Shown here: positions 10,975-61,784 of the stretch, piece by piece
Layout of the letters: each line of letters opens with the position of its first letter
How positions within the stretch are numbered: the first letter of the stretch is position 1
Source of the DNA: an uncultured Gemmatimonadales bacterium
GTDB taxonomy: Bacteria; Gemmatimonadota; Gemmatimonadetes; Palauibacterales; Palauibacteraceae
Reading direction: 5' to 3'
DNA length: 64,000 nucleotides
Assembly: GCA_963783385.1 (NCBI GenBank)
Contig: CAWANJ010000009.1
Coordinates: 448,001-512,000 of the forward strand
Position numbers and translations under genes: made by a program
Notes under the pieces: generated by a model
Told to the model about the DNA's origin: nothing
Seen by the model: only the letters and a program-made list of their open reading frames with translations
The model's database searches: none

Positions 10975-10977
10975 GAG

Positions 10978-11025: not shown

Positions 11026-11113
11026 GTCTTGCCACGCGGGTTCGACCCCGTAGAATGGACCCGAGGCCTTCCATCGGAGGGCGCCACTGCGTCCGTCCAG
11101 AGGAGGGTGTCGA

Positions 11114-41178: not shown

Positions 41179-41180
41179 CT
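41137..41180 (+). repeat. attL core (44 bp, 3' half of tRNA-His)
   Basis: Identical to 59639-59682. Confidence 0.95.
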
Positions 41181-41183
41181 CTC

Positions 41184-41260
41184 TAAGTCACTGATTGTCA
41201 GTGACTTCCGGTTCACCGTCACCAGGCCGCCCAGCCTCACGGTGACAGTGGCGGTGACAA
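41184..41260. promoter_or_regulatory. att arm: IHF-like site/inverted repeat and putative integrase arm-type repeats
   Basis: AAGTCACTGA-N3-TCAGTGACTT (41185-41207); reverse complement of 41184-41196 fits WATCARnnnnTTR; CGGTGACAR at 41240 and 41252. Confidence 0.65.
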
Positions 41261-41284
41261 GCCGCGACCGGGAGAGGGGCTCGG

Positions 41285-42533
41285 ATGCTTGCCGAACGGC
41301 TCTACGAGATCGTCCAGGATACGCTCGCCTACGCCCGAAGATCTGACCTCGCCGACGCCCTATCGGCGCTCGCCAAGGCCACCAGGGATCGAGAGCAAGG
41401 TAGGGCCACCCCAGCAACACCGCCCCCGAATCAGCCTCCCCAGCCGAACCAGAGACGCCAAGAACCGACCGGCCCCAGTGCGGAGCAGCGCTTCCGATCG
41501 GCCCTCGACCACCTGAGCATCGCCCTCACCTCATCGGACGGGATCAATCGACTGGCCCCCTCCGATGCGAATATCCTAAAAGGCGATCGGCGGATGGGAG
41601 TTGACCGGAAAGCGACTCTGGGACCGAATCGAAAGGCGCTTGAACGTCCCGCTTTCGATGAGTCCTCGGCCTCCGACTTACTGGATCGCCTATCTGCCGG
41701 AGGTTCCAGAACAGTTCGTCGAAGCTCTGGAGGGTCTGGCGGAGAGCTTTCGAGTGCTGGGCCTGCATGGCATGGGTCTGCCGGGTGAAGCCCGCAGAGA
41801 TCGGCGTCATTTTCCCGGCCGGAGTTGAGGAGCGAAGCTTCAAGACAACCTCACGATCGGAGCTCGCTGACTTCAACTTAGCCCTCAGGGTGGTGCAGGA
41901 CGGCGGCTGGAAGACCACCCGGCGACATTCGAGTACGATCCCTGTCGAGTGGGAGCTGGTATCCTCGCGCTTCTGGGGAAGCTGGCGGTGGCTCGGGTGT
42001 TTTTGGCCTGCATCGAGGGGGGCGCTTGGCATTATCGATAAGGGGATGAGCATCGGTGCTCGCTATCGTGAACTCCGTGAGGCGGGCGCCCCGAAGAAAT
42101 CTCAGACGACCATATCAACCAGATGGTCGCCGTGGCTATGCGTCAGGAACGGGAGAGAGTTAAGGATGAGATCCTCGAGAGCGACGACGATCCGCGTCCT
42201 CGCGACCACGAAGTAGCGAACCACCTCGGCAGGGCGTTGGATTACTTCGTCCGCAAGATTAACGAAGGGGTGGTCTTTGAGGTCCGGGCTCTGCCACCGG
42301 CCGCCGGCGACGAGGGACTGGATGAGGAGTCCCGAGAATCCCTCGACCGGCTGTACAGTTTCGGCGGCGTAATGGCGGAGGACCATCCACGCCGTCACCT
42401 CCCGCATGAGGCCCTTCGGCTCGCTCGAGGCTATGAAGAAGACGAGCAAGAGGAAGGCGAGGCGGCCGGCGAGCGGGCCGATTACGGAGGACAGCCAAAT
42501 AGCGACGATGCCGCCGCCAAGAACCGGGACTAG
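41285..42533 (+). CDS. Cargo hypothetical protein (~400 aa), broken by several frameshifts
   Basis: Consecutive overlapping ORFs 41285-41788, 41601-41828, 41767-42216 and 42123-42533 read as one protein; lower GC than neighbours. Confidence 0.6.
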
Positions 42534-42534
42534 G

Positions 42535-43803
42535 CTAGGGGGCGATCAGGGCGGTGAGCCGCTCGCCGAGCTCCTTCCGGTAGTCCTCCACCCGGAACGC
42601 AACCTCCGGCCGCCGGTCGGGCCGCTGGGCCAGGTGCCCGTAACGCTCCTCGATCAGCCGCGTGGAGCTGTGCCCGAGCTCCCGGGCGACGGTGTAGAGG
42701 CTCACCGGCACCGGGACCTCCTGCGACTCCCCATCCGGACCCGGCCGCTTCACGACGTCGTAGGTCTGGATCCGCGCGGCCGTGTACGTGTGCCGGAGCA
42801 TGTGCCAGCGGATCCGCCCCTCGAGAAACCCCGCCCGCTTTCCGATCGTGTCGAGCTGCCGGCGGCACTCGCGGAGCATCTTCCCTGAGCGCGGGGAGGG
42901 AAAGAGGAGGCCGTCCTTCGGGCCGCTCCCCATGAACACGTAGGCCTGGAGGATCTCCCGGAGCTGGGGCCAGAGGGGGACCGTCCGCCTCGACCGCTTC
43001 GTCTTGAGCCCCCTGAATGCGTTCGGACGCACCCTGAGGAGCCCGGCGTCGAAGGAGAGGTCCTCCACCGTCAGGCCGAGGAGCTCGGACTTCCTGAGGC
43101 CCGTCAGAAGCGCCGTGGCGATCATCTCGTACATGGCCTCGTTCCCCCGGGCGGTGTCCGGCGGTGAGTAGAGCCGGGCCGACTCGAGGAGGAGGGCCGC
43201 CTCGGCCGGCTCCAGCCAGTCCTCTCGCTCCTTCCGCTCCGGCACCGGCTTGTCCAGGAGCGCCGCTACGGGGTTGTAGCCCGGAGGGACGACCTCCTCC
43301 TGCTGGGCGCGGCGGTAGAGGTTGGAGAGGCTGTTCAGGTGGTCCCGAACGGTCTTCTCGGAGAGCGTGCCGCCACGGCCGTTGTCGGTCTTCCGGAGGA
43401 CCGCGATCCACTGGCGCATGTCGGACGGCCGGATCGTCGTGAGCTCGCGGTCCTTCCCGAAGAACTCCACGGCCCGGGCGAGCTGATTCTCGACCGCCAC
43501 GAGCCACTTCGGGGACACGCCGGCCCGCTTCTTCGCCTTCATGTGCTCGGAGCCGAAGGCCTCGAGGCCCTCCACGCGCCGCACGCCCGTCACGACGCGC
43601 CGCTGGCGAAGCTCCTGGAGCTCCTGGAGGCGCTTGGCCGCCAGGGACTCGGCGATCGCCGGGTCCGTAGTGGCCCGCTTCGCCCCGTCGGGGATCAGCG
43701 CCTCCCGGCCGCCGCCCTCGGCGGCGTAGTCCCGAAAGTCCGCGTAGTAGCGGTCCTCGCCGCCGCGATTCCGCGTGTAGAGCCTGCCTCCGTTCTTTGC
43801 CAT
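42535..43803 (-). CDS. Tyrosine recombinase/integrase
   Basis: Catalytic set TGLRKSEL, KTKRSRR, WHMLRHT, ELGHSS, ERYGH; strong RBS. Confidence 0.95.
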   Translation of the reverse strand: MAKNGGRLYTRNRGGEDRYYADFRDYAAEGGGREALIPDGAKRATTDPAIAESLAAKRLQELQELRQRRVVTGVRRVEGLEAFGSEHMKAKKRAGVSPKWLVAVENQLARAVEFFGKDRELTTIRPSDMRQWIAVLRKTDNGRGGTLSEKTVRDHLNSLSNLYRRAQQEEVVPPGYNPVAALLDKPVPERKEREDWLEPAEAALLLESARLYSPPDTARGNEAMYEMIATALLTGLRKSELLGLTVEDLSFDAGLLRVRPNAFRGLKTKRSRRTVPLWPQLREILQAYVFMGSGPKDGLLFPSPRSGKMLRECRRQLDTIGKRAGFLEGRIRWHMLRHTYTAARIQTYDVVKRPGPDGESQEVPVPVSLYTVARELGHSSTRLIEERYGHLAQRPDRRPEVAFRVEDYRKELGERLTALIAP

Positions 43804-45240: not shown

Positions 45241-45642
45241 GACGAGGTCGAGCGGTAGTGCCGGTGAGGCGGCGCTCGACTTCGGCAACTGGAGGACGGC
45301 CTCCCAGCAGCACCGAGGTGGCCAGCCATGTCTCGACGCAAGCCGCTGTACCGACCGCGACGCGGGCGCTTCCTAACGGCCGCCGAGAACTCGCATCTCG
45401 CGCACGGGATCATGGCCGTCCAATGGGTGGCGAGCGCGTGTTCGCGGCCGACCGCTGCTCGAGCCTGGTCGAACGCGGTCCGGGCATCCGGGAGGACGCG
45501 GGACTCGGACTGCGCCGGCGAACGTGAGAGGCACCGGGGCCGGTCGACGGGGCCGGTGGCGTGACGGCCGACCTACGGCGGTCGAAGCGCCCGCGGGGTG
45601 GTGGCCGCGCCCGGTCGCCCTACTCACGGACCTCTCGGTCCA

Positions 45643-46023
45643 ATGACGCCGGCGTTCCCGAGCCGCCGCTTCGTGGACCTGCTCCGCGAGCTCTACTGGC
45701 TGGGCGACGCGCCGCCGCCGGCCGCGCCGCCTGGCTGGAACGAGGCCGCCGAGCTTCAGGATCTCCGGGCCGCCTGGCGGAACCTTGGTCGAGATGCCGA
45801 GCGCGTCGAGCGCGCCATGCGCGGCTTCCGCGCCCTCGCCGATCGCGGAGAGCTGCCGGGCACCGCGGCGGGCGAGGCCTTCACGGGCGCGCTCCTCAAG
45901 CGCCTGCGGGGCGAAGGCTTCTGGGAACGGGCGGAGCGGGCCGGCCAGGTGTTCGAGCCGGGGCCGCCAGCGAAGGAGCGGCGCCCCCGGACCTGGTCGG
46001 CACGCTCGCCGGTCGGATCGGCC
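45643..46023 (+). CDS. Hypothetical protein, in frame with the DnaB N-terminus (fusion or frameshift artefact)
   Basis: MTPAFPSRRFVDLLRELYW...; part of ORF 45598-46902. Confidence 0.45.
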
Positions 46024-47396
46024 ATGGCTAGCGCGGTCGCCGCGGTCCCGAACTCGGAGCTCGCGGAGCGGGCCGTCCTCGGCGCGTTGATCCTCGATCC
46101 GGAGCGCGCGGACGATCTTCTCGCCGAACTCCGGCCGGAGGACTTCCTCGATCCCGGGCGCCGGGCCGTGTTCGAGGCCTCAAGGTCGCTCTACCGGGAT
46201 GCGCGGACGATCTCGGCGGAGCTCCTCCACGAGCGACTCCTGGCCGACGGCGAACTCGAGCGCGCCGGGGGCGCGAGGGGGCTCGCTGGCCTCCTCGAGA
46301 CCGACGTCGCCGGAAAGCAGGCGCTCGAGCTCGCACGCGAGCTGAGGGGCCACCGGATCCGCCGCGAGCTGCTCCGGGCCGCTGGCGACGTCGCAGCCAT
46401 GGCCCGCCGCCTGGACGTGCCGGCCGGCGAGCTGGCGGGCCGCGCCGAGTCGCGGATCCTCGAAGCTGCCGGCGCCGACGTGCACCAGGACAATGGCCTC
46501 GCGATCGGGGCCGCGGCGCTCCAGGCGCTCGAGAGGATCGAGCGCGTCCGGGAGAAGGGCGGTGCGATGGGGCTTCCCACCGGCCTCGGGGCTCGACCGG
46601 CTCACGGGCGGGCTCCGGGCGGGCCAGCTCTGGATCGGCGGCGGGGACACGAGCTCGGGGAAGACCTCGCTCGCCGTCGGCATCGCCCGGCACCTCGCGC
46701 TCGCCGAGGCCCAGCGGGTCGTGTTCTACAGCTTCGAGATGGGCGGGACGGACATCGGGGAGCGCGTCCTCCTCCAGGAGGCCGGGATCGGACTCGCCCG
46801 GGCGAAGCGCCGGGACCTCGGGCAGGCCGACATCGAAAGCTCCACAGGGCGGCCGCGCGGCTGCAGCGCGCCCGCTCAAGATCGTTCCCGCCTCCGACCT
46901 GAGCGCCACGGAGCTTCGTGCCCGCGCCCGCCGCGAGGTGCGCCGGGGCGGCGCCCGGCTCCTCGTTGTCGACTACCTCCAGCTCGTCCCGGGAGGCGGC
47001 GGCGAGACCCGCGAGCAGGAGGTCTCGGGCGTCACGCGGGAGCTCGGCCGCATGGCGCGCGAGCTCGAGGTCCCCGTCCTCGCCCTGGCCCAGATCAACC
47101 GCTCGCACGCCTTCCGCTCGGGCGACCACCGGCCCCAGCTCTCCGATCTCCGCGAGTCGGGAGCGATCGAGCAGAACGCCGACGTCGTCCTGTTCGTCTA
47201 CCGGCCGGGCCGCTACCGGGACCCCACCGAGCCCGAATACCGGAAGGAGCGGGAGGAGGCGGAACTCATCGTCGCCAAGCAGCGCCAGGGACCGCTCGGG
47301 ACGGTGCGCTGCCGCTTCCGCGGTGAGCTCTACCGCTTCGAGGAGCTCCTGCCGGACGAGCAGGCTTCCTACAGCCGCGGAAGGGTTCGCACATGA
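46024..47396 (+). CDS. DnaB-like replicative helicase, frameshifts at ~46590 and ~46850-46880
   Basis: AERAVLGALI, GLPTG, GGDTSSGKTS, YSFEM, VVDYLQL, LAQINR, RPQLSDLRESGAIEQNAD, IVAKQRQGPLG. Confidence 0.9.
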
Positions 47397-47730: not shown

Positions 47731-47900
47731 TTGCAGACGTCTGCAACGCCAGGCATGCGGCCATGCGTCGCGGACGCATTCCCCGACCGACCATCCGAGC
47801 CGGGGCCGGCGGCGACGCCGGTGCGGGCGCGCGGCGTTTCACCTCCTCCGCCGCCCCCGGGGGCCGCATCCCCCGCCCGGTCTCCTCTTCGCTCATGCGG
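47731..47900 (+). ncRNA. Candidate structured RNA/regulatory region with GNRA hairpin and anti-SD loop
   Basis: 16-bp palindrome 47731-47746; hairpin 47763-47779; outer stem 47800-05/47855-60 enclosing a GCGA-tetraloop hairpin and a hairpin with loop TTTCACCTCCTC. Confidence 0.5.
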
Positions 47901-47910
47901 GAGCGACGCG

Positions 47911-48945
47911 GTGTCCGGACCGACTGATGCCTACGCCCGGCTCGCCGACGCCGCCGTCCGCGAGGGCCGCCTCGAGGAGCTCGACCAGCTTGTGCGGGCG
48001 ATCGACCCCGCCTTGGCCCGCCGACTCCAGTCAGCGCTCACCAACGGCCTCAAGGAGCGCAATGCCGAGGAAGCCCGCGGCGACGACGGCCCCCAGATCG
48101 TCCGCCTGGCCGAGATCCTCGCGCGCCCCGATCTCCTCGAGCCGCCGCGGACCGTGGTCCCCCGGCTCGCCTGGTCGGGCCGCGTCACGCTCCTGGCCGG
48201 CCGCGAGAAGGTCGGCAAGTCCACCCTCGCCGCCGGCGCCGAGGCGGCGGTCTCGGCGGGCGCCGGGCTCTTCGGGGCCTCGACGCCCTGCGGGCCGGTC
48301 CTTCTCCTCGCGCTCGAGGAGCACATGGGCGACGTGGCCCGCCGGCTCCAGGCCTTCCGCGCCGACCCCGAGCGCGTCTGGGTCCTCGACCGGATCGAGG
48401 AGCCGCTGGCCGACCTCGCCGGCGCCGTCCAACACGTCGGCCCGGCCCTGGTCGTGGTGGACACCCTCGCGGCCTTCACCGCGCCGCTCGGCCTCGAGCC
48501 GGGCAGCTCGACCGACTGGACCCCGGTCATGGCCGGGATCGCCCGGGTGGCCCGCGACACGGAGACGGCGATCGTGCTTCTCCACCACGCCTCGAAGGCG
48601 GACGGCTCCTACCGGGACTCCACCGCGATCGGCGCGGGGGTCGACGTGATCCTCGAAGCGAAGCGCGGCACCGAGGAGACGGTGCAGGTGAAGGCCCGCG
48701 GCCGGTTCCCCGTCGAGGACTTCACGGTCCGGCTGCTGGGGAGCCCGGCACGGCCCCGGCTCGCCCTGGCCGCCGGGGAGCTCGGCCTCGACGCCCGCGT
48801 GCTGTTCTACGTCGACCGGAACCCGGGGGCCTCGAAGCGGGCGGTCTGCGGGGGGGTCGAGGGCAGGGCGCAGGACATTCTCAACACCGTCGATCAGCTG
48901 CTGGGGCGAGGCCTCGTGGAGGACCGCGGCGACGGACGCGGCTGA
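47911..48945 (+). CDS. AAA_25 / RepA-like (RecA-fold) ATPase-helicase
   Basis: AGREKVGKST, LALEE, LVVVDT, LLHHASK, RDSTAI; possible C-terminal wHTH. Confidence 0.85.
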   Translation: MSGPTDAYARLADAAVREGRLEELDQLVRAIDPALARRLQSALTNGLKERNAEEARGDDGPQIVRLAEILARPDLLEPPRTVVPRLAWSGRVTLLAGREKVGKSTLAAGAEAAVSAGAGLFGASTPCGPVLLLALEEHMGDVARRLQAFRADPERVWVLDRIEEPLADLAGAVQHVGPALVVVDTLAAFTAPLGLEPGSSTDWTPVMAGIARVARDTETAIVLLHHASKADGSYRDSTAIGAGVDVILEAKRGTEETVQVKARGRFPVEDFTVRLLGSPARPRLALAAGELGLDARVLFYVDRNPGASKRAVCGGVEGRAQDILNTVDQLLGRGLVEDRGDGRG

Positions 48946-49252: not shown

Positions 49253-49346
49253 GCCGTAAGTCGTTGTCGGGCATGGACCGAACGGCAGGCTGCACGCCCA
49301 ACGACCGGAGGCGGCCGGTAGGCGTAACTAGGCGTGAGGCAAGCAC

Positions 49347-49715
49347 ATGAGTCTTGAGGAGCGCCTAGCACGCATGATCGAGCCGCTCCCGGACGGGGCC
49401 AGCGTGCTGCTGCCGGTCGAGACCGTGCGCCGCTGGCTCGAGCTCGAAGGGCAGGGCGCGGGCTCCCGGCCGCTCTCGGATCTCACGATCGCGGACGTCG
49501 CCGAAGAGCTCGATCGCTCGCCCTCGACGGTGCGCGGATGGCTGATCGCCGGTGACATCCCGGAGGCCTACAAGCTCCAGGGCCGGGAGTGGCGCATCCC
49601 CCGCGGTGCGCTCCGGGCCTTCCTGGACGGCCAGGCGAACGGCGACGGCGGGGTGAGGCGGGGTACCGGCCGGCGATCGAGCGCGAAGCTCTCGGATTGG
49701 AGGAGGCAGGCGTGA
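49347..49715 (+). CDS. Excisionase/AlpA-like HTH protein
   Basis: LTIADVAEELDRSPSTVRGWLIAGDIPEAYKLQGREWRIPRGALRAFL. Confidence 0.85.
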   Translation: MSLEERLARMIEPLPDGASVLLPVETVRRWLELEGQGAGSRPLSDLTIADVAEELDRSPSTVRGWLIAGDIPEAYKLQGREWRIPRGALRAFLDGQANGDGGVRRGTGRRSSAKLSDWRRQA

Positions 49716-50134
49716 GCGACCACAAGCGGTGCAGGGCGATCACCGAAGGCGGCACGCGGTGCAAGATCCAGAACAGCCTCTCCGAGGACGGGCTGTGCCT
49801 CTGGCACGACCCCGAGCGCGCCGAGGAGGCGGCCCGTGCCCGCCGCCGCGGCGGGCGGAATGGCGGCCGCGTGCCGAAGATCCGGACGGCCGGCATGGAC
49901 GAGGTCCCCGATCCGCCCCAGAGCGTCGAGGACGTGGTGGCCTGGACGAGCTGGGCTACCTGGGCGGTCGCCACGGGCAAGATCGACAGCCGCACGGCCC
50001 ATGAGATCGGCTACCTCGCCCGGGCGCTCCACGCCGGACTCGAGAAGGTGGATCTCAGCGAGGAGGTCGAGGAGCTCCGGGCGATGATCGAACGCCTGCA
50101 GGCCGGCGGCTCCGCGTCGAGGGCGGCTCTGTGA
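49712..50134 (+). CDS. Probable terminase small subunit-like protein with N-terminal CCCH zinc finger
   Basis: RCRAITEGGTRC...GLCLWH; C-terminal coiled coil; coupled directly upstream of TerL. Confidence 0.6.
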   Translation: MSDHKRCRAITEGGTRCKIQNSLSEDGLCLWHDPERAEEAARARRRGGRNGGRVPKIRTAGMDEVPDPPQSVEDVVAWTSWATWAVATGKIDSRTAHEIGYLARALHAGLEKVDLSEEVEELRAMIERLQAGGSASRAAL

Positions 50135-51708
50135 CGCTCGCCACCGACCTCCGGCGGCTGCGGGAGGACGTCGGCGAGCTCCTCGCCCGGCACGATCGGG
50201 CGCAGGACATCTCCGAGTTCGAGGCCTACGCCGAGGACCCGATCGGCTTCGTCCGCGACGTGCTCGGCGACACCGACCCCGGCCCCTGGTGGCGGCAGGT
50301 GGAGATCGCCGAGGCTGTCCGGGATCACCCCCTGGTCGCGGTGCGCTCGAACAACTCGGCCGGCAAGGACTGGCTCGCGGCGCGTCTGGCGCTGTGGTGG
50401 GTCTACGCCCGCGGCGGGCTCGCCCTCGTCACCGGCCCCACTGAGCGTCAGGTCGTCGAGGTGGTCATGGGGCAGGTGGCCCGCGCCTTCCGCCGGGCGA
50501 GCTCGCTCCCCGGCGACCTGTACCGCTCGGCGCTCCGGGTCGGCGAGACGGAGGAGGCCGGGATCCTGGCCTTCACGTCGACCGAGGCCTCGAGGCTGAC
50601 GGGGTTCCATGCCGGGCGCGTGTTCTGTGTGCTCACCGAGGCGCAGGCGGTCGAGGATTTCGCCTGGGAGGGGCTCCTGGCCTGCGCGACGGGACCGGAG
50701 GACCGGCTCCTGGCGGTCGGCAACCCGGTGGCCCCCGACGGGCGGTTCTACCGGGCCTCCCGGGCCGGGACGTGGAAGGCGATCCGGGTCTCCGCGAAGG
50801 AGCACCCGAACGTCGTCGAGGGCCGGATGGTGATCCCCGGCGGCGTGTCCCGGGCCTTCGTGGAGCGGATCGCCTCGGAGTACGGGGCGTCGAGCGGCGT
50901 CTACAGGTCCCGCGTCCTCGGCGAGTTCCCCGACCAGGGAGAGGACGCGCTCTGCGCGCTCGAGTGGGTCGTCTCCGCGGCCGAGCGCTGGCAGGACGAG
51001 GAAGAGCACGAGGACCGCCGGCCCCGGGGCCTGCCGATCGTGGCGATCGACCCGGCGCGGTTCGGGCCGGACCAGACCGTCGCAGCCGTCATGCGCGGGA
51101 GCCGCGTCGTCCGGATCCTCGCCTGGCGGGGCGCCTCGACCATGGAGTCCGTCGGCCGGGTCGCGGAGCTGCTCCGCGAGGAGGGCATCCGGCCGAAGCC
51201 CAAGGCCCAGCGCTCGGCGCCCGGCGGCTTCGACGCCTACGGCCGGCCCACGAAGTTCGCGCTGCCCGCGGCGCCCCCGGAAGAGACCGGCCGGATCGTG
51301 GTGGACGAGATCGGCGTCGGGGGCGGCATCGTGGACCGGCTCCGGGAGCGGGGCTTCGAGGTCACGAGCTTCAACGGCGGCGGCCGGCCGCGGGGAAAGG
51401 GCCGGGAGCGGCACCTGAACCTTCGGGCGCAGGGCTACTGGACGCTCCGCCGCGCGCTCGAGCGGGGTGAGATCTCGCTCCCCCCGGACGACGACCTCCG
51501 CCAGGAGCTCGTGTCCATGCGCTGGGGGCCGACCTCCTCCGGCCAGATCCAGATCGAAGCGAAGACCGAACTCAGGGCGCGGCTCGGGCGGAGCCCGGAC
51601 AAGGCCGACGCCGTCTCCATGGCCGTGCTCGAGTGGGCGCGGCTCCGGGCCAGGGCCGCGCGGGACCCGATCGCGCCGAGCCTATCGTTCACTGACACCA
51701 GCATGTGA
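50131..51708 (+). CDS. Terminase large subunit
   Basis: YAEDPIGFVRDVLG, RSNNSAGKD, GNP, RVLGEFP; nuclease motifs IDPARFGPD, VDEIGVGGG, RLGRSPDKADA. Confidence 0.9.
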   Translation: MTLATDLRRLREDVGELLARHDRAQDISEFEAYAEDPIGFVRDVLGDTDPGPWWRQVEIAEAVRDHPLVAVRSNNSAGKDWLAARLALWWVYARGGLALVTGPTERQVVEVVMGQVARAFRRASSLPGDLYRSALRVGETEEAGILAFTSTEASRLTGFHAGRVFCVLTEAQAVEDFAWEGLLACATGPEDRLLAVGNPVAPDGRFYRASRAGTWKAIRVSAKEHPNVVEGRMVIPGGVSRAFVERIASEYGASSGVYRSRVLGEFPDQGEDALCALEWVVSAAERWQDEEEHEDRRPRGLPIVAIDPARFGPDQTVAAVMRGSRVVRILAWRGASTMESVGRVAELLREEGIRPKPKAQRSAPGGFDAYGRPTKFALPAAPPEETGRIVVDEIGVGGGIVDRLRERGFEVTSFNGGGRPRGKGRERHLNLRAQGYWTLRRALERGEISLPPDDDLRQELVSMRWGPTSSGQIQIEAKTELRARLGRSPDKADAVSMAVLEWARLRARAARDPIAPSLSFTDTSM

Positions 51709-51715
51709 GGGCGCC

Positions 51716-52396
51716 ATGACCGCCGTACTCGCCGCATCGATCGAAGACGTCGAGGGCCGCTGCGCCGAGCTCCAGGGGCGCCGGGACGGGCTCCGCGAAG
51801 AGCTCGCCGGCGCGCGGAAGGACGTCGCGGCCGCCCGGGAGGCGCGGGCCGCCGGGACGGGCTCGACCGAGGCCCTCGCCGGGGCGCACAGCCGCGCCGA
51901 GGCGCTCGCCGCCGCGCTCGGGGAAGCGGAGGAGCAGCTGACCGCGGCCCATGCCGAGCTCGCCGACCTCCGGCGGGAATCGGGCCAGGGGGCCAGCCGC
52001 CGCCGCCTCGCCGAGCTGGCCGGCCAGGCGGAGACGCTCTTCGAGGAGTGGTCGGAGGCCTACCGGGCCTTCGGGGCGGCCCTCTCCCGGCTTCCGCGGC
52101 GGATCCTCGACCTCGAGGCGGAGCTCGCGGACCTCCAGCGGGAGTTCACCGAGCGGGCGGAGGCGCTGTGGCCGGGATTCCGCCGGGGCGCGGCCGGAAG
52201 CGTGGACCTCGAGGGCCTCGAGCTCGGGCCGCTCGCCGGCTACCGCGAGCCCGGGATGAACCTCGCCCGGCCGTGGGTCCGCGGCGACACCTCGGAGCTC
52301 GGGCGGCTCGCCCGCCGGCCCGAGCGGCCGGACCTCGGCGCCGTGGACAAGCCGGCGCAGGAGCTCATCGCGATCGAGCGCGAGCGGCGGGCGTAG
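51716..52396 (+). CDS. Coiled-coil hypothetical protein
   Basis: 226 aa, Ala/Glu/Arg/Leu heptads over ~150 aa. Confidence 0.7.
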   Translation: MTAVLAASIEDVEGRCAELQGRRDGLREELAGARKDVAAAREARAAGTGSTEALAGAHSRAEALAAALGEAEEQLTAAHAELADLRRESGQGASRRRLAELAGQAETLFEEWSEAYRAFGAALSRLPRRILDLEAELADLQREFTERAEALWPGFRRGAAGSVDLEGLELGPLAGYREPGMNLARPWVRGDTSELGRLARRPERPDLGAVDKPAQELIAIERERRA

Positions 52397-52415: not shown

Positions 52416-52799
52416 ATGACTCTCAGCGCACAGCAACTCGACGACCTGCTCGAGCTCCGCTCCCGGCTGATCGAGGGCGGGCTCGACCCGGCGACGGCCC
52501 ACCGGAAGACCGTAGAGGCCGGCCGCCGGCTCGGCACGGGCGGGGCTGCGGTGGACGCGGTGGCCCGGGAGATCCTGGAGGGCGAGGGGGGCCGGCGGCG
52601 GCCGCGGACGGAGGACGTCCGGACCCTCGTGGGCGCCCTCAAGGACTGGGGCCTCAGTGACGACGACGCGCTCGAGGCGGCGATGTCGAACGCCCACCGG
52701 CTCGAGCGCCGGGAGGCCACGGCCGTGGCCCGCGACCTGGTCATCGCCCGGGCGGCCGACCGCAAGCGGGAGGAGGGAAACTACGGTGACCAGTTCTAG
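52416..52799 (+). CDS. Hypothetical helical protein
   Basis: AAGGAGG RBS; two similar halves ending VAREI / VARDL. Confidence 0.7.
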   Translation: MTLSAQQLDDLLELRSRLIEGGLDPATAHRKTVEAGRRLGTGGAAVDAVAREILEGEGGRRRPRTEDVRTLVGALKDWGLSDDDALEAAMSNAHRLERREATAVARDLVIARAADRKREEGNYGDQF

Positions 52800-53094
52800 G
52801 CGGGACGGGCCGGTCCGCCGGCTCTTCCGCGAGCTCGGGGTCCTCCGGGCGCTGGTCTCCGGCAAGGCCCCCGACCCGGACTCGCCTGGCTACGCGGCGG
52901 CCGGTCGGGTCATGGCGACGCAGGCCGGTCGGGTCTGGCAGGTCCGCTACATCGCCTGGCACATGCGGCGGCCGTGGTGCTGGATCCCGGAGGGCTGGGA
53001 CATGGCCACCTTCTGGGCGCTCCACGGCGGGCCGCCGGGGCTCTGGCGAGCGATCCAGGCCGAGCACCGCCGGCGCCAGGCGCCGCTCAACTGA
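52786..53094 (+). CDS. Trp-rich hypothetical protein
   Basis: GGAGG RBS, GTG start overlapping the upstream gene. Confidence 0.6.
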   Translation: MTSSRRDGPVRRLFRELGVLRALVSGKAPDPDSPGYAAAGRVMATQAGRVWQVRYIAWHMRRPWCWIPEGWDMATFWALHGGPPGLWRAIQAEHRRRQAPLN

Positions 53095-53109: not shown

Positions 53110-53291
53110 ATGGGGGACCCAAGGGCCGGCCGGGGGGAGTGTGAGGCCTGCGGCGAGGAGCTCGGACGCCGCGGCGGCCGCGTCTGCGAGCTCTGCAGGG
53201 TCAAGGGCCGCTCTGCGAGGAGTGCTGGGTCGAGGACGGCCACCAGGCCCACGCCGACCAGGCGCTCGACCTGTCGGGAGACCATCAATGA
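53110..53291 (+). CDS. Small multi-CxxC zinc-finger protein (one frameshift)
   Basis: CEAC, CELC, then CEEC...H..H in the shifted frame; stop overlaps ATG 53288. Confidence 0.55.
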
Positions 53292-54082
53292 GCACGCGGC
53301 GGCTGCTCTTCCTCGACCTCGAGACGACGGGGCACGGGGGAGCCGGATCCGGACCGCGACTGGATCGTGGAGTTCGCGTTCCAGCGCCTTGACCCGGAGC
53401 TCGGGCGGGCTCGAGCGGTGGGCGGAGCGGGTGAACCCCGGCGAGCCGATCCCGCGGACGGACCGAGGTGCACGGGATCTCTGACGCTGACGTCGCCGGC
53501 GCGCCTCCCTTCGCGGCCTTCGCGCCTGGGGTCCAGGGCCTGGTCGAGGGCTCGCTCCTCGTGGGCTACGGGAGCCGGCGTTACGACGTCCCGATCCTCG
53601 ACCGGGAGCTCCGCGCTGCGGACGAAGCCGGGCTCGAGCGGGACGCTTCGGGCGCGTTCATCGTCCACCCGGAGATCGACCTCTACCTCGCGTGGCAGCT
53701 CCACGAGCCGCGCGACCTGGCGACGGCGGCCCGGCGCTTCGCCGGCCGGGAGCTGGGGAACGACGCACATGGCGCCGAAGCGGACGCGGGCGTGCTCCGC
53801 GAGGTGCTCCGCGGCATGACCGAGAGCTTCGGTCTCCCCGGAGCGGACCGGCCCTCGGAGCTGGCCGCGGCTTGCCTCCAGCCCGGCGCCATGGACCGCG
53901 CCGGCTGCTTCCGCCGGCGCGAGGACGGTGTGGTCGTGTTCGACTTCTCGAAGAACCGCGGCAGGCCCGTCCGGGAGGAGCCGGGCATGCTCGAATGGAT
54001 GCTCAGGAACGACTTCCCGGCCGAGACCCGGCTCCTCGCGGATCGGCTTCTACGGGACGCTACTGGCGGCGGGGAGGACTGA
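53288..54082 (+). CDS. DEDDh 3'-5' exonuclease (DnaQ/ExoX-like), frameshifted near the 5' end
   Basis: FLDLETTG, VNPGEPIP, VHGISD, YDVPIL, AHGAEAD. Confidence 0.88.
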
Positions 54083-54085: not shown

Positions 54086-54616
54086 ATGGCTGCGGACGAG
54101 GGCGGCGTGCGGTACGTGGACCTCTCGAGGCCCTGGCTCGGCCGCTTCTCCGTCATGGTGCTCGAGCCGCTGGTCGAGGCGGCCGCGCGCATCGTCCGCG
54201 ACAAGATCATCGAGGTCATGGAGGCGTCCACCCCCTCGGGCAAGCGCTACCCATCCCGTCCACCATCGCGCCCCGCAAGCGCTACAACCCGGAGACGGGC
54301 CAGTGGGAGGAGCTCCCCGGGCAAGTTCTACACGGCCTCCGCGCCGGACGAGCCCCCCGCGATCCGCACCGGCGGCTACCGGGACGCCTGGCTGGCCTCG
54401 GGCGCCTTCGAGGCGCGAGACGGTCATGGCGTGATGGCCGTCGTCTACAACTCGATCTACGTGGGGAAGGGCCGCGTCCCGCTCTGGGACATCCTCCAGC
54501 GGGGGCGGAAGGACGGCACGCTCCAGCCCCGGCCACACATCGACAAGGCGCTCGAGCTCGCGCGGCCCGAGATCGAGGCCCTGATCCGCGGCTTCTCCGG
54601 GCGCGGGGGCCTGTGA
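54086..54616 (+). CDS. HK97 gp10-like phage tail-completion/morphogenesis protein
   Basis: TASAPDEPPAIRTGGYRD...LQPRPHIDKALE resembles this family. Confidence 0.65.
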   Translation: MAADEGGVRYVDLSRPWLGRFSVMVLEPLVEAAARIVRDKIIEVMEASTPSGKRYPSRPPSRPASATTRRRASGRSSPGKFYTASAPDEPPAIRTGGYRDAWLASGAFEARDGHGVMAVVYNSIYVGKGRVPLWDILQRGRKDGTLQPRPHIDKALELARPEIEALIRGFSGRGGL

Positions 54617-54710
54617 GCCGCCGGAACGGCCGGCCGGCTGAGGCGGCCGTCACGGCCCGCGAGGCCCGAGGGGGCACAAAGACCGGCCGGAGCCCGCCCC
54701 GGACGACTCA

Positions 54711-54951
54711 ATGCGTGCGGACGCACTTTCCGGCGATTCGGGAGGGGGCGGCGCGCACTGCGAGTGGTGCGGCAACCGATGGAGCCAAAACGCCGTGGCA
54801 GCGGTTCGACACGACGCGCTGCAGGAGGGAGGCCCACCGGGCGGCGCGAGGCGAGAAGATTGAGACCGCGGTTCGCGAGGCGCTGGACCGCGCGCGGCAG
54901 GACATCATGGACGCGCTCAGGGAAGCGCTCGAGGACGCGGGGCTCCGCTGA
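54711..54951 (+). CDS. Small hypothetical protein (CxxC plus C-terminal helix), probably frameshifted
   Basis: HCEWCG..., then TRCRREAHRAARGEKIETAVREALDRARQDIMDALREALEDAGLR*. Confidence 0.4.
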
Positions 54952-54983
54952 GCGGGCGGAGCCGGAGCAGATAGGAGGCAGGG

Positions 54984-57900
54984 ATGCCGAACGAAAGCGG
55001 TGCACCGCCGGTCGGCGAAGCGGCGGTCGAGTTCTCGCCGAGCACGGGGCAACTCGAGGCGGACATCAACACGAAGGTTCGCCAGGCGTCGGAGGCTGGC
55101 GGGAAGAGGGCGGGCAAGGCTTTCAGTCGGGGCTTCCGGGACACCTCGAAGCCACCGGGCAGCAGGCGGCCGACGCGATCGTGGCTGACGTCAAGCGGCG
55201 CTTCGACGAGCGCTGGCCGAGGTCCGCCACGCGTTCGCCGCCGGCCTCATCAACCGCCAGGAGTTCGAGAAGGCGGGCCGCACGGCCGCCGAGGACTTCA
55301 ACAAGGCGCTCCTGAACTCCATCCGCCGCCTCGAGGAGCGGGACAGATCACGCCGGCTGTCTTTCGGCAGCTGTCCTCTCAGATCAAGCTCGAGGGCGTC
55401 CGGGCCGGGGGACAAACGGGAGCGGGATCCAGCAGGGCCTCGGCGGCCTCACCAAGTGGCTCCGGACGGGCTTCTATGCCGGCACGGCGGGCGCGCTCCT
55501 CTACGTGGCCAGCCGCATCAAGAGCTTCTTCGCCGGCGTGGCGCGCGACGTCGAGAACACGCTGAACCTCGGCGGCCTCCAGGCCCGCCGCCAGTCCCTC
55601 GAGAGCCTCGCCGGCGCGCAGGGCCTCGACCCCGCCCGGCTCCTGGGGAGCTCCGGAAGGGGGCGCGCGGCACGCGTCCGACTTCGAGCTCATGGACCGC
55701 GCCAACAACGCCCTCCAGGCCGGCCTCAAGGGCTCGGCGGACCAGTGGGGCGAGATGGCGACGGCGGCCCGCCGGCTCGGTCAGTCGGTCGGAATCGACG
55801 CCGCGACGGCGTTCGAGCGCATGACGAACGCCATCGTCCATAACCGGCCGATCATCGCCTCGACGCTCGGCCTCGTGGTGAACTGGAAGCAGGCCTACGA
55901 CGATGCGGCCGCCGCCCAGGGGCGGACGGCCAACAGCCTGAGCGCCACCGAGAAGCAGCAGATCCGGCTCTACTCGACGCTCGCGGTGGCCCGGAAGCGG
56001 GTACAGGACCTCGGCGCGGACCAGCTGAACGCCGCCCAGCGCGTGGAGCAGCTCCGGAGCGCTTGGGACAATGCCAAGAACGCTATCGCGCAGGCCATCG
56101 CCACCAACCCGGGCGTCGTATCGTTCCTCGACTCCATCGCCCGGGGCGCCGAGAACGCGTCTGCGCCAATGGAGGTCCTGGTGACGAAGATTCAGGCCGC
56201 CGTGGACACCGCGCTCCAGCTCGGCAAGGGGCTCTTCCAGGGCGGCATCGCCGGCTTCCTCGCGGCCTCGGCGAGCGGTCCAGGCTACCGCGAGAACCTC
56301 CAGCGCCGTCAGCAGCAGATGGCCGTGGAGAACATCGCTACGCGAGTGACACGAACGCCCTCCTCAAGCAGCGCAACGAGCTGGAGCAGGAGGCCGTGAG
56401 CTGGCAGCGCTTCCGGGTCGACGGCGAGGTGAAGGAGGAGGACGCGATCCGGAAGGTGAAGGATCTCCACGAGCAGATCCTCGCCATCAACCAGCGCATC
56501 GCGCAGCTCCGCGCTCAGGGGGACGTCCCCGGCGGCGATCCCACCAAGATCAACCTCGCCGCCCAGGCCGCCACGGCCATGAACGACGCGCTCAAGGAGA
56601 CGGCCGGGCTCCTCGGTCAGATCGAGGGCGAGGCGGCCACCAGTACACCGGGCAGGGCCTCATCGCGCGCTTCTTCCAGCGCGCCTCCGGCCCCTCCCCG
56701 GTCGGCCCCGGCGTGTCCGGGTTCTCCCAGGGCGCCGCCGGACTCCAGGCGGCCGAGGACCTGCGCGCGAAGCTGACCGACCTTCACCACTTCATGGACA
56801 TGCTCTCGAAGGCCGAGGGCACGGCCGGCGAGAAGTCGCTGGCCCTGAACGAGCACCTGAAGGAGCTCGGCCTCACCTGGGACCAGTTCCCCGACACGCT
56901 GAAGCTCCTCGTGAACGGTCTGATCGGCGCGGGGAACGCCGCCCTCATGCTTGGCCAGGGCTCGGATCAGGCCGAACGGAGCGCCTCGAAGCTGATGGAC
57001 CCTGCGGGCATCGAACGGGCGGCCCGCGGCATCCTCTCGCTCGCCGATCGATGGGCGTCCTCGACCACAAGACGCGCCGCGCGCTGCAGGGCATGGTCGA
57101 CATCGCGGGAGGCATCAGGACCTTGCTCCAGGGGGTAAGCTCGGAAATCTCCCCTCGGTGGCCGGCGGCCATTCCAGGGCGTTTCCGGCATCATCGGCAC
57201 GGTCAGCGGCCTGTTCGGCAAGAGTCGAGAAGGACAAGGAGCGCGACCGGCTCCTCGCCGAGAACAATCAGCGGCTCACCGACCTCAGGAACGAGCTCGG
57301 CCGCCAGCTCCAGTTCCTGACCGGGATCTCCGGCGACCAGTTCTCCGCGCTCCTCAAGGTGACTCAGCAGGCGGCGGCCGACCCGAACAGCTTCCTCTCG
57401 GGCTACCACTGGGCCGACCTCAAGAAACAGCTGGAGGCGGCCGGCCTCGGCCTCTCCGACCTCCACGACGCCGCCCAGAAGCTCGGGATCACCTGGGACG
57501 ACGGCCACCTGGCCGAGAGCTTCACGGCGCTCGCCAGGGCGCTCCGCGAGCTCGACCTCAAGAAGGCGCTCGGCACCTTTCAGGGGCAGATGGGGCTCCT
57601 CCAGCACGAGTTCTCGATCTTCAACGTGACCGACCCCGTGCAGAAGCTGGAGAAGTTCCGCCAGCTCCTGCTCAGCTTCACCAGCCTGCCGGGCGGCCTC
57701 CAGCAGCAGCTCTCCGGCCTCGACCTCACCACGGCGGCCGGCCAGACCCAGCTGCAGCAGATCCTCGAGCAGCTGTTCTCGGCCTTCGCCTCCGGCCGTA
57801 TCTCCATCGCGCAGCTCCAGGGCGCCCAGGGCGGCCTGTCGGCCTCCGACTTCCAGGACCTCCTCGACCAGATGGCCCAGCTCCTCCAGCACGCGCAGGG

Positions 57901-58250
57901 CGCCTCGGGGAATGTCGGCGGCCTGCAGGTGTTCAGCGGGATCAGCGAGCTCCAGGCGAACCGCCTCCTCTCGGGCGACGATACCAAGATCGCGCTCCTC
58001 TCGAAGCTCTGAGATCAACGCGGCCGGCTTCCGCGGGCTCGGCGTCGACATCCCGAGCCCGGGCGACCTCGCGCCCCTGGCCCGGCCTGGGGGCGCGGCC
58101 TCCACGACCGTCACCTTCCAGCCCGGCTCGATCGAGATCGGCCCGATCGACCTCGCCGGCGTCTCCGACCCGAAGGCGGCCGGCCAGGCGCTCGGCGACG
58201 CCTTCGTCCGGGAGATCGACCGGCGGCTTACGCGAAGCGGGTCTCCGCCT
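54984..58250 (+). CDS. Phage tail tape-measure protein (~1,090 codons), split by many frameshifts; 3' end approximate
   Basis: AGGAGG RBS; N-terminus VGEAAVEFSPSTGQLEADI; long Ala/Gly/Leu/Gln helical runs (ORFs 55692-56399, 56713-57138, 57158-58012); TMP-like tail TTVTFQPGSIEI...DPKAAGQALGDAFVREIDRRL. Confidence 0.8.
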
Positions 58251-58683
58251 CGCGCGTCCAGGGGAGGGTCTCTGAGCGGGCTCGTGGTGGACGGGGAGGG
58301 ACTGCCATATGTCTAGTAGGCGGCCTGGACCGAGGCGCGTGGGCGCTCCTCGCCTCGGATACGATCCGGACTAGCGCCGACGGCACCCGTCAGGCGATCC
58401 TCGTCTCCTTTTCGGGCGGCGCGCTCACGCCCTGGAGCGTCCGGGCCTACGGCTCGGCCTCGGCCACCAATGGCGTGACCTACGTCACCTTCGGCTCGCC
58501 GTCGGTCACGGCCATCACCTCCTCGACGGCGAAGGTGCTCCTCCGGACCGCCGAGAGGGCGTAGGGCAGGCGGGCCAAACGGCCAGCCGCTCAGGTGGGC
58601 CATACCGCAGGGTAGGGGTAGGGCTCAACGGAGGGTCAACGGGCAGGCGGAGAGCCCATGGAGACCCCTCCTGGCCCTTCGGA

Positions 58684-59058
58684 CTACCAGCCGTCTGAGC
58701 CGACCATCCAGCCCTGACCTGTAAGCGAGTCGAGGAGCACCTGTCCCGTCTTCCTGGGCCTCCCAGCGCGGCCGGGCAGGTTGTACTTCCAGAATGCGAC
58801 GCCCGCGTCCACCTCGACCGAGTCCGGAGGTCCGAGATGGGCGAGAAGTTGGCATGCGCTCCAGTCACTCTCCGGCGCATAGTGCTGGCCCTTCGGCAGG
58901 TCCCTGTGCAGCCGGCCGTAGGCCTCCAGGACCGCGTTGTAACTGCAGCCCCACCGCGCGGCGACCTCCTGGGTGATGAGCCTCGGTCGCTGGGCGCAGC
59001 TCGCGGACAGCACCACCACCACCGCGAACAGCGCGGGTCGCAGAGCCTTGGTCGTCAT
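58684..59058 (-). CDS. Small lipoprotein (cargo)
   Basis: GGAGG RBS; MTTKALRPALFAVVVVLSASC lipobox. Confidence 0.75.
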   Translation of the reverse strand: MTTKALRPALFAVVVVLSASCAQRPRLITQEVAARWGCSYNAVLEAYGRLHRDLPKGQHYAPESDWSACQLLAHLGPPDSVEVDAGVAFWKYNLPGRAGRPRKTGQVLLDSLTGQGWMVGSDGW

Positions 59059-59552: not shown

Positions 59553-59638
59553 ATTCTGGCCGACGCGGACCAACGAAGAGAAACCGAAACGCCGCGTGAA
59601 ATGTGGCTCCTGAGCGTTGACTGACGACCGGAACTAGC

Positions 59639-59682
59639 TTGTGGCCCTGGAGGCCGCGGGTTCGAATCCCGTCGCTCACCCT
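59639..59682 (+). repeat. attR core (duplicated 3' half of tRNA-His)
   Basis: 44-bp identity to 41137-41180. Confidence 0.95.
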
Positions 59683-59735: not shown

Positions 59736-60059
59736 GTGACCGGACCATCCACCACCCTCGACCGACTTCACCAGCGCGTGCGGACTTTCGTGGACCTGGC
59801 CGCGCGCGTCGAGGCGGCGTTCGCCACGCCGGACGATGACGCCGGCCCGGCGGCCGAGCGGGTTCGGGAGGTGCGCCGACTGGCGAGCCGGCTCGGGTCG
59901 GAGAGCCGCGAGCTCCTGGACCGCCTGACGAAACTGTGCGGCCGCTCGCGCCTGCGCGTGATGCTCGGCCTCCTGGTGACGCGCGGGCGCCAGCGCCGCG
60001 TCGCGGAGCTGGCCCGCGAGGTGGCCGCCTCGCTGTCCGAGGCGACCGGGAGCGTCTGA
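59736..60059 (+). CDS. Hypothetical helical protein
   Basis: 107-aa ORF with backbone-like codon usage. Confidence 0.55.
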   Translation: MTGPSTTLDRLHQRVRTFVDLAARVEAAFATPDDDAGPAAERVREVRRLASRLGSESRELLDRLTKLCGRSRLRVMLGLLVTRGRQRRVAELAREVAASLSEATGSV

Positions 60060-60168
60060 GCCGGCCGGGCGGGCCGCAAGAGAGGTGAGCATGGGACGCA
60101 TAGTGGACTTCCTGGGCATGACGGTGGGCGGATGGGTCGGGTGGGCGGTCGGCGACCGGCTGTCGCTG
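60005..60168 (+). repeat. 164-bp direct repeat, copy 1
   Basis: Matches 61621-61784 with two substitutions. Confidence 0.92.
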
Positions 60169-60232
60169 GCTCCGTCACGGCGGCACAAATGAACGAAGGA
60201 GCGTTGACTCACGGACGAGCTTGAGAGACGAA

Positions 60233-61501
60233 ATGCGCATCACTTATCTGCATCAATACTTCAATACGCACTCGATGGCGGGCGGCACACGGTCTTTCGA
60301 GATGGCGCGCAGACTCGCCGCTAAAGGTCACGATATTACGGTGATCACGGCCCGCCGCGAAGCAGACGGCGCGAAAGCTTGGGTTACGACCCAGGAGTCA
60401 GGCGTCGAAGTGCATTGGTGCGCAGTTCCCTACTCGAATCGGATGAGCTTCTCCCAACGCATGCGCGCGTTCATGCACTTTGCCTGGGCGAGTGCACATC
60501 GCGCCGCTTCGTTACCTGCCAATGTCGTCTTTGCGACGAGCACGCCCCTGACGATCGCCTTGCCCGGCATGTATGCGGCTCGTCGCCGCCATGTGCCAAT
60601 GGTGTTCGAAATCCGCGATCTTTGGCCCGACGTCCCGATCGCGATGGGCATCCTGCAGAACGGTCCCCTTTCCTGGGCTGCCCGTTTCCTGGAAGGGCGG
60701 GCGTATTCGCGCGCGGCCAAAGTCGTCGCGCTGACGCCGACAATGCGGGATTTCCTCTCGGGAAAGGGGGTGCCGCTCGAGAAGATTGCGGTCATTCCCA
60801 ACGGGGCCGATCTCGACCGGTTCGAGTCCGGTGTGTCCCGTGGACGGGAACCGGGGGAGCGCATCACGGCGGCCGATACAGACCCTCGCACTGTCCTTTA
60901 CTGTGGGAGCCTCGGACCAGCGCACGGGCCGGGTTATATCCTGCGCCTCGCCGAGGCGCTGCTGACATCGAGCCCGGACGTTCAGATACTGGTGGTCGGG
61001 GACGGCAGCCTGCGACACAGTCTGCAGAAGCAAGCCGACGCATCCGGCTGCCTTGGTCGAACCATCAAGTTTGTCGGTCAGGTGCCGGCGTCGGAGGTGC
61101 CGAAATATTATGCAAGCAGCCGAGCTTCGCTCATGACGATGGCCGACTGCGAATTGCTGTACCGTCACTCCGTTCAGAACAAGTTCTTCGACAGCCTCGC
61201 GGCAGGGAGGCCGGTGTTTTCGAACTATACGGGTTGGTCGAGCGAGGTCGCGGAGAGGCATGGCGCCGGCGAGGTTCTGCCGCGCGACGATCTGCCGGCT
61301 GCAGCGGCAGCGCTGAGCGCCAGGCTGCACGATCCCGCGTGGTTGCTGCGGGCGGGGAAGGCGGCTCGGCGGCTCGCAGAAGAAGCTTTCAGCTATGACT
61401 TGCTGGTAGACGAGCTGGAAGAGATACTGGAGTCGGCAGTTAGGGATAGGAATTTCAAGCGGCCTCCTGCCTCCGAGGCAGGCGCTTCGATGGCAGAGTA
61501 G
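60233..61501 (+). CDS. GT4 family glycosyltransferase (WbuB-like), lower GC
   Basis: MRITYLHQYF...GGTRSFEMARRL, ATSTPL, FEIRDLWP, IPNGAD, NKFFDSLAAGRPV. Confidence 0.92.
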   Translation: MRITYLHQYFNTHSMAGGTRSFEMARRLAAKGHDITVITARREADGAKAWVTTQESGVEVHWCAVPYSNRMSFSQRMRAFMHFAWASAHRAASLPANVVFATSTPLTIALPGMYAARRRHVPMVFEIRDLWPDVPIAMGILQNGPLSWAARFLEGRAYSRAAKVVALTPTMRDFLSGKGVPLEKIAVIPNGADLDRFESGVSRGREPGERITAADTDPRTVLYCGSLGPAHGPGYILRLAEALLTSSPDVQILVVGDGSLRHSLQKQADASGCLGRTIKFVGQVPASEVPKYYASSRASLMTMADCELLYRHSVQNKFFDSLAAGRPVFSNYTGWSSEVAERHGAGEVLPRDDLPAAAAALSARLHDPAWLLRAGKAARRLAEEAFSYDLLVDELEEILESAVRDRNFKRPPASEAGASMAE

Positions 61502-61620: not shown

Positions 61621-61784
61621 GGAGCTGGCCCGCGAGGTGGCCGCCTCGCTGTCCGAGGCGACCGGGAGCGTCTGAGCCGGCCGGGCGGGCCGCAAGAGAG
61701 GTGAGCATGGGACGCATGGTGGACTTCCTGGGCGTGACGGTGGGCGGATGGGTCGGGTGGGCGGTCGGCGACCGGCTGTCGCTG
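61621..61784 (+). repeat. 164-bp direct repeat, copy 2
   Basis: Matches 60005-60168. Confidence 0.92.

Follow-up and report, generated by a model that had tools for sequence, protein, structure and literature searches.

The satellite PLE11 of Vibrio cholerae encodes its own tape measure protein (TMP), chaperone and hub, and experimental work published in 2026 shows that PLE virions contain the satellite TMP and exclude the ICP1 TMP, that their tails are ~10 nm shorter, and that, through its own TMP in chimeric tails, PLE11 evades Rta, a TMP-targeting inhibitor which it encodes itself (PMC12987554). According to the legend of Extended Data Fig. 10 of that article, PLE-like elements and some capsid-forming PICIs (cf-PICIs) carry putative tmp genes, and a figure or supplementary listing there may include elements like the one described here (PMC12987554). 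EPIP satellites of Mycolicibacterium, ~11 kb long, also carry a TMP and have longer and variable tails (bioRxiv 2025; PMC12822802). Here, we describe a TMP gene and the candidate satellite that carries it in a 64,000-nucleotide stretch (the window) of an uncultured Gemmatimonadota bacterium (Gemmatimonadales, Palauibacteraceae; GCA_963783385.1, contig CAWANJ010000009.1, positions 448,001 to 512,000 of the forward strand), whose genome comprises 3.54 Mb in 9 contigs and is 92% complete with ~72% G+C. The TMP locus, placed by a preliminary description of the sequence at 54086-58250, is the right-hand end of a delimited 18.5 kb integrative element in a tRNA-His gene.

Coding frames were assessed from third-position G+C content (GC3) together with open reading frames (ORFs), because stop codons are scarce at ~72% G+C. 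The tRNA-His (GTG) gene was located by ARAGORN at 41105-41179 on the plus strand, and its 3' part is the attachment site: a repeat search found a left 47-nt direct repeat at 41134-41180 (attL) that is 98% identical (one mismatch in 47 nt) to a right repeat at 59636-59682 (attR), which duplicates the 3' part of the tRNA gene, with 18,502 bp from repeat start to repeat start. With a tyrosine integrase gene at 42535-43803 on the minus strand (PF00589 at 3e-15), the element thus has the small size, integrase and attachment sites of an integrative satellite. A complete set of virion genes is absent at profile level: none of the element ORFs tested matched portal, capsid, protease, tail-tube, chaperone, Dit/Tal or fibre profiles (Pfam, PHROG, NCBIfam), which agrees with the preliminary description in that no major tail, chaperone pair, Dit/Tal or fibre gene accompanies the TMP, and TMP is the only virion-structure profile matched in the element.

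We give about an even chance to the reading, drawn from sequence comparison, that the element is a phage satellite whose self-encoded TMP goes into hybrid tails. When a helper tailed phage infects or is induced, the element would excise and replicate, its DNA would be packaged by its own terminase, and its TMP would replace that of the helper in tails otherwise made of helper parts (chimeric tails). This reading is proposed because the element is delimited and has packaging and replication genes with no recognisable head or tail-tube genes, and because relatives share a layout of large terminase (TerL) followed by TMP, one of them with a TMP 67% like that of a co-binned phage. The suggestion in the preliminary description that an element-encoded TMP builds chimeric tails or evades exclusion therefore gains from the element borders, the relatives of the same layout, the pair of contigs in one relative's genome and the PLE11 precedent; on the other side, the function is deduced and no helper was found in the window genome.

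The TMP gene (54984-58316, plus strand, ~1,100 codons when read through) had been described as a ~3.3 kb gene with a ribosome-binding site. An AGGAGG at 54973-54978 does precede an ATG at 54984, and the stretch is collinear with an intact 1124-aa protein (P0001), but it is not one ORF: the frame with high GC3 shifts repeatedly between 54984 and 58316, with ~14 single-base insertions or deletions (indels) relative to copies that read through. The coding stretch terminates at ~58273-58316 and not at 58250. P0001, encoded on a 22,966 bp contig, was retrieved by a word-based search with the piece 55692-56399, over which it is 59% identical. Both tblastn and an alignment that allows for frameshifts place the window collinear with P0001 residues 1-1124 over several frames. 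P0001 itself matches phrog_3779 at 1.9e-7 and has 5301 relatives at E<=0.001 (63 at E<=1e-30), many of 1,100-1,400 aa. A profile made from 16 P0001 relatives (A1) matches 17 of 401 phylum genomes at E<=1e-10, the window genome included, in open frames that reach 1,730 aa and are mostly ~1,000 aa or more; none of the 29 other genomes of the same family was matched.

Relatives of the TMP at three loci (L034, L030 and L032; 1121-1154 aa) lie in complete head-tail modules, and two of them strongly match TMP PHROGs (range 1e-37 to 1e-118); the order in L034 is portal, protease, connectors, tail terminator, major tail protein and TMP (phrog_13339, 1.3e-118). Since A1-matched homologues occupy complete tail modules with strong TMP PHROG matches, the window gene belongs, by homology, to a genuine TMP family. 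Its identity rests mainly on these homologues, because profile support for the window pieces is weak: piece 55566-56399 is the sole one with a TMP PHROG match (best phrog_1535 at 2.1e-6), and no Pfam or NCBIfam TMP model was matched. The match to TMP profiles by which the preliminary description proposed to judge the gene is thus present on one piece and strong in homologues, and lacking on the other pieces. The gene is also without the typical TMP position after a major tail protein and a chaperone pair, which the homologue in L034 does have; its upstream neighbours (exonuclease, 176-aa gene and small basic ORF) all lack tail and chaperone matches. At 0.15 nm of tail per residue, ~1,100 codons correspond to a tail of ~165 nm, in line with the earlier estimate of ~160 nm.

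When 54086-58316 was searched as DNA in 40 related genomes, nothing beyond short matches (<=121 nt) of the kind expected by chance was obtained. No match was obtained by tblastn with two TMP pieces against cultured phage records, with P0001 against genome contigs and viral contigs, or with the proteins P0154 and P0158 (described below) against viral contigs. A tblastx comparison of the TMP flanks with related loci gave bit scores of <=54 and was disregarded as compositional noise in high-GC DNA.

Packaging and replication genes occupy the centre of the element, all on the plus strand. A DnaB-like replicative helicase (45598-47396; DnaB N and DnaB_C domains, phrog_19) lies in three frames, with the N domain in ORF 45598-46902, DnaB_C residues 8-91 in 46493-47326 and DnaB_C residues 128-255 in 46938-47396. 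It is followed by an AAA_25 (RepA or primase-helicase-like) replication protein at 47731-48945 (PF13481 at 1.2e-22; phrog_906 at 1.1e-15), an HTH_17 (excisionase/AlpA-type) DNA-binding protein at 49338-49715 (PF12728 at 3.4e-13), a conserved small gene with an uncertain start at 49589-50134, and an intact TerL at 50131-51708 (phrog_2 at 3.9e-26, residues 24-506). The small gene, which encodes a conserved cysteine/histidine-rich N-terminal motif and then long helices, has homologues before TerL in L053, L060, L061 and 7 metagenome loci, and by this position only it is a small-terminase candidate; a Foldseek search of the PDB with its model (pLDDT 70.6) found nothing at E<=0.001, and the top-ranking entries were ribosomal proteins. 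Downstream of TerL are a 226-aa coiled-coil protein without an assigned role (51716-52396; weak coiled-coil-type matches only), two small genes of 127 aa and 102 aa without a known family (52416-53094; no profile match, called as genes in public records) and a DnaQ/RNase T-type 3'-5' exonuclease (53283-54082; PF00929 and phrog_192 on ORF 53468-54082). The TerL, 226-aa and 127-aa proteins are each recorded with identical sequence on 2 contigs.

TerL matches 31 of 401 phylum genomes at E<=1e-8, the window genome included, and its relatives in named records are all Gemmatimonadota metagenome-assembled genomes. One relative (G301:C110) is integrated in tRNA-Pro, is bounded by perfect 39-nt repeats and measures 13,724 bp. 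Its genes run integrase, AAA_25-like protein, small gene and TerL, then, after three small ORFs, a TMP-like gene of 1196 aa that matches the A1 N-terminal region at 3.2e-14, and finally RuvC and SSB. Another (G214:C2; L054, 5411-13409) is a 7,942 bp island in tRNA-Leu whose borders are perfect 57-nt repeats, flanked by host genes for flotillin, an M16 peptidase and a PQQ dehydrogenase, in which an intact TerL (9683-11233) is directly followed by an intact 1015-aa TMP-like gene (A1 at 5.1e-33; TMP PHROGs down to 1.2e-9) and which holds little else; of an integrase, four related integrases gave only weak plus-strand tblastn traces (E 0.002-0.13), with no PHROG match. A third (G237:C116; L060) is a 14,556 bp contig that closes to a 14,415 bp circle because its 141-nt ends are identical; its order is integrase, AAA_25, HTH_17, small gene, TerL and TMP, and the TMP ORF spans the contig junction (816 codons stop to stop, A1 at 1.7e-59). 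In G333 and G163 the TerL and TMP matches lie 5.6 and 10.6 kb apart. Seven of 35 metagenome or viral TerL loci keep the small gene upstream of TerL, none with a large ORF after TerL, and a relative in G017, a genome of the same family as the window genome, occupies 15.9 kb in tRNA-Val with a stop within TerL and a short integrase fragment. Because some TerL relatives, among them one in G346, carry no A1 match, the family core consists of the replication genes, the small gene and TerL, and TMP is a recurrent addition.

The nearest approach to a helper comes from G237, where the TMP of the circular element is 67% identical over 773 residues (74% in DNA) to the 776-aa TMP of contig C79, a 40 kb phage contig (L064/L065) with a P22-type coat protein (48% identity, 9e-92) and portal (1e-38). 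Besides TMP the two contigs, C116 and C79, are alike only in one 118-nt DNA match, and their TerL proteins do not match; on sequence they form a candidate satellite-helper pair. We hold it possible, at somewhat less than even confidence, that Gemmatimonadota carry a family of minimal ~8-18 kb tRNA satellites whose virion genes are only the small-terminase candidate, TerL and TMP, and whose TMP tracks that of the helper as an entry ticket into helper tails.

The frame breaks of the window were compared with other copies of the element. A European Nucleotide Archive (ENA) contig of 18,588 bp, against the 18,502 bp between the window repeats, carries near-identical genes. Its protein P0154 (693 aa) has the same start as the window TMP, continues to ~57000 and spans eight window breaks, and P0158 (306 aa) spans the break at 58010; 646 of 681 and 299 of 304 codons, respectively, are identical to window DNA. 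According to these proteins, bases are missing from the window at 55153, 55215, 55340, 55417, 55647, 55676, 56335, 56631 and 58228, and a single extra base is present at 58010. Logan contigs from three sediment runs (14, 14 and 6 pieces) are 95-99% like the window and show indels relative to it, among the 12 of 21 indel rows listed, at 54249, 54315, 56631, 57000-57047, 57145, 57169 and 57226. When the differences listed for a 989-nt X2 piece are applied to the window, one open frame results from 56545 to 57527 and aligns with P0001. The gapless Logan pieces coincide with frame-continuous parts of the window (55842-56161, 55778-56024, 57340-57934, 57265-57462 and 57631-57850), and the gapped ones overlie mapped breaks, with the exception of piece 4 (54936-55144, 2 gaps). 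No single record of the element with one uninterrupted TMP ORF was seen; other copies span nearly all breaks. Run shares of 0.08-0.26 were set aside, as they hold no habitat information beyond the aligned contigs.

The breaks are not confined to the TMP. The exonuclease has an Exo I-type stretch in one frame, its next two segments in two others and then ORF 53468-54082, and an ENA exonuclease (P0164) spans the last of these breaks. By gene, TMP has ~14 indels and the 176-aa gene has 2; DnaB has no fewer than 2 and the exonuclease no fewer than 3. Indel sites outside TMP include 53458 and, in DnaB, positions near 46500 and 46900. In TMP, 11 of the 14 differences are bases absent from the window, often beside short G or C runs, which is the usual pattern of long-read consensus error; over 1,980 nt the X1 contigs have 26 mismatches and 6 gaps, and a ratio of ~1 indel per 4 substitutions far exceeds what is normal for coding DNA; and GC3 remains 0.9-1.0 in every piece. 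Among host genes, a sortilin/BNR-repeat gene (12.7-16.08 kb) is split at ~13912 by one extra base within a conserved stretch into ORFs 12379-14751 and 13745-16078, which is either an assembly error or a pseudogene; this was the only host frame break spotted, by a frame-change scan that is crude and unreliable for minus-strand genes. Long host genes of 1449, 1080, 1050 and 947 aa are intact.

Judging from these comparisons, most of the window indels are likely to stem from consensus error, clustered in an element that varies between strains: copies that share identical TerL, 226-aa and 127-aa proteins have different breaks, the missing bases prevail, the indel-to-substitution ratio is high and GC3 is undecayed. 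Real, strain-private lesions in the window copy are possible. The preliminary description had named real frameshifts as grounds for giving up its reading; the read-through copies largely answer this against real breaks, without settling it, and the window frameshifts should be treated as probably artefactual. Two further features of the TMP gene were seen. The patch 56990-57150 is highly variable, the 989-nt contig having 47 mismatches and 10 gaps that fall mostly here and yet staying in frame, and the ENA TMP ORF terminates within it. In the N-terminal part (54984-57040 compared with P0154), 35 of 681 residues differ between the two copies. TMP appears to be a divergence hot spot, because the TerL, 226-aa and 127-aa proteins are identical on 2 contigs each; this 5% N-terminal divergence beside an identical TerL could reflect an arms race over TMP recognition.

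If the indels were real instead, the element would be a decaying cryptic copy whose TMP, DnaB and exonuclease are pseudogenes with no present function here, an explanation that we find unlikely without dismissing it. It accords with the accumulation of indels in four element genes against one host break (~13912), with the intact long host genes and with the breaks of the ENA copy's own, and is countered by the fact that the breaks are not common to copies otherwise 95-100% identical at protein level, three proteins being identical on 2 contigs each, that contigs of short-read type span every checkable break, and that missing bases, a high share of indels and an undecayed GC3 mark the differences. 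An ordinary prophage remnant, from which head and tail genes were deleted to leave TerL and TMP behind and which has no satellite life style, is less probable still, and in our judgement quite improbable. Integrase and attachment sites persist in many cryptic prophages, neither direct evidence of mobilisation nor a helper was found in the window genome, and the 15.9 kb relative in G017 has its stop within TerL and its short integrase fragment; but four delimited elements, in different tRNAs or circular, keep TerL-then-TMP with intact long ORFs, two of them with perfect repeats, the 7.9 kb island in G214 holds little besides these two genes, the window element has its own replication module, and the 18,588 bp contig of another assembly is nearly the same size as the 18,502 bp element. 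That the TerL-like ATPase and the TMP-like protein act outside a virion, in DNA transfer or anti-phage interference and not in a satellite, we regard as very improbable: it would suit the pair as minimal conserved cargo of the 7.9 kb island, the missing tail chaperone or hub beside TMP and a TMP-like protein in L053 that matches no TMP PHROG, whereas the C-terminal region of the window TMP family also occurs in bona fide TMPs that follow major tail and chaperone genes, the G237 element TMP matches a phage TMP over its full length at 67%, and no transfer or defence family turned up, in searches that did not include a dedicated defence-system scan.

Several observations weigh against a satellite that supplies its own TMP. 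DnaB, the exonuclease, the 176-aa gene and TMP are all frame-broken in the window, and the ENA copy is broken too, with TMP in at least 2 calls, ~57000-57350 uncovered, a TMP C-terminal frame unlike that of the window and an exonuclease call that begins internally. The structural-gene negatives are those of profile searches, and several small ORFs belong to no family. The closest TerL relatives (G017, G398 and G222; 61-63% identity) have no A1 match, nor does any of the 35 metagenome or viral TerL loci. In the window genome, PF05065, PF04860, PF11651, phrog_21 and phrog_29 gave no match and hence no helper, phrog_2 finds only the TerL of the element and the TMP profile finds only the window; the helper negatives are weak, because PF05065 and PF04860 also missed the C79 phage. 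The two G237 contigs, C116 and C79, are linked by binning only. PLEs encode a tail assembly chaperone and some a baseplate hub (PMC12987554), neither of which is recognised in the window element, where 54613-54951, 58340-58564 and the other ORFs gave no profile match to a PLE-type chaperone or hub.

The 176-aa ORF (54086-54616, plus strand) and the small basic ORF behind it (54613-54951, plus strand; GTG start overlapping the upstream stop, no PHROG match) both exist as the preliminary description had read them. The label 'gp10-like' given there to the former found no profile support: the window ORF and its intact ENA version (P0153) have no Pfam, PHROG or NCBIfam match (for Pfam, nothing at E<=1 for P0153 and nothing at E<=0.01 for the window ORF), and a PF04883 scan of the whole genome gave nothing at E<=0.1. 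A compensated indel pair (~54249-54255 and 54315-54316) garbles residues 57-77 of the window ORF; P0153 has the same length and differs mainly at these residues, which equal the other frame of the window between a missing and an extra base, both in C runs. Protein-language-model neighbours of the 176-aa protein are viral clusters (scores 0.95-0.96), one with PF04883 on 15% of its members and one named virion morphogenesis, a lead and not a membership. A phylum-wide six-frame homologue search gave one marginal match in 400 genomes, and a single-sequence AlphaFold2 model (mean pLDDT 48) was too poor for a fold search. The protein has an 'SAPGEPP...TG' motif that we take to resemble the HK97 gp10-like family, and it is possibly a neck or tail-completion protein. 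In one X1 contig, 54606 is joined to 54936 with 6 other letters between, skipping 329 nt, an environmental variant without the small ORF between the 176-aa gene and TMP.

The remaining genes lie towards the ends of the element. Between attL and the integrase, a lower-GC stretch (41181-42535, G+C ~0.60), at the usual satellite spot for cargo or defence genes, contains three plus-strand ORFs without a known family that are possible cargo (41285-42533; weak GC3, no Pfam or PHROG match). Behind TMP are a short ORF (58340-58564) and, as the last gene before attR, a small protein with a lipoprotein-like signal by eye (58684-59058, minus strand; GC3 pattern and translation, no family match). Just beyond attR, in DNA of lower GC (0.66-0.67), a 164-nt direct repeat (99% identical; 60005-60168 and 61621-61784) flanks a glycosyltransferase gene (60221-61501).

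If the satellite reading is true, the element would represent a capsid-less type of satellite that contributes both packaging motor and tail ruler itself, and chimeric-tail piracy would extend from Vibrio to an environmental phylum. The function of a satellite TMP was shown only in 2026, in one Vibrio system, and its recurrence in an unrelated family, pared down to terminase and TMP, from an uncultured phylum of soil and sediment would suggest that takeover of the tail ruler is a general satellite strategy. TerL directly followed by TMP, without a portal, may serve as a marker for such elements. For annotation, a 'pseudogene' with >12 frameshifts can be a local assembly artefact in a strain-variable mobile element.

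Among described systems, the window element resembles PLE11 in being small and integrative and in encoding a TMP of its own but no tail tube or sheath (PMC12987554). It differs in that PLEs are without a TerL of this type and have a TMP 20% identical to that of ICP1, compared with 67% and equal length in the G237 pair, where tail length would be unchanged because the TMPs are equal in length; in addition, the host here is an uncultured Gemmatimonadota and no helper was identified for the window element. EPIPs are likewise small satellites, in which an integrase and genes for head-tail joining are combined with a TMP that their authors tie to altered tails; they differ in a serine integrase, a small terminase and annotated scaffold and capsid genes (PMC12822802), whereas in the window element the integrase is of the tyrosine type, TerL and replication genes are present and no capsid gene was recognised. 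The prophage TMPs of L034, L030 and L032 are similar in length, homologous over the C-terminal half and alike in a glycine-rich hydrophobic segment by eye, and differ in following portal, protease/capsid, connector, terminator, major tail and chaperone-position genes. The cf-PICIs are integrated satellites with an integrase, an AlpA-type helix-turn-helix protein, replication genes and packaging genes, and are defined by a capsid module of their own (portal, protease, major capsid). The window element shares with them the tRNA or chromosomal integration, the integrase, the AlpA-type protein and the replication and own packaging genes, and differs in that an own portal, protease or major capsid was not found by profile searches. 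Literature searches turned up no paper on phage satellites in Gemmatimonadota, nor any satellite described as having TerL and TMP but lacking capsid genes. TMP-carrying satellites are already known, and the combination of TerL and TMP without a capsid in Gemmatimonadota is best filed as a variant of them.

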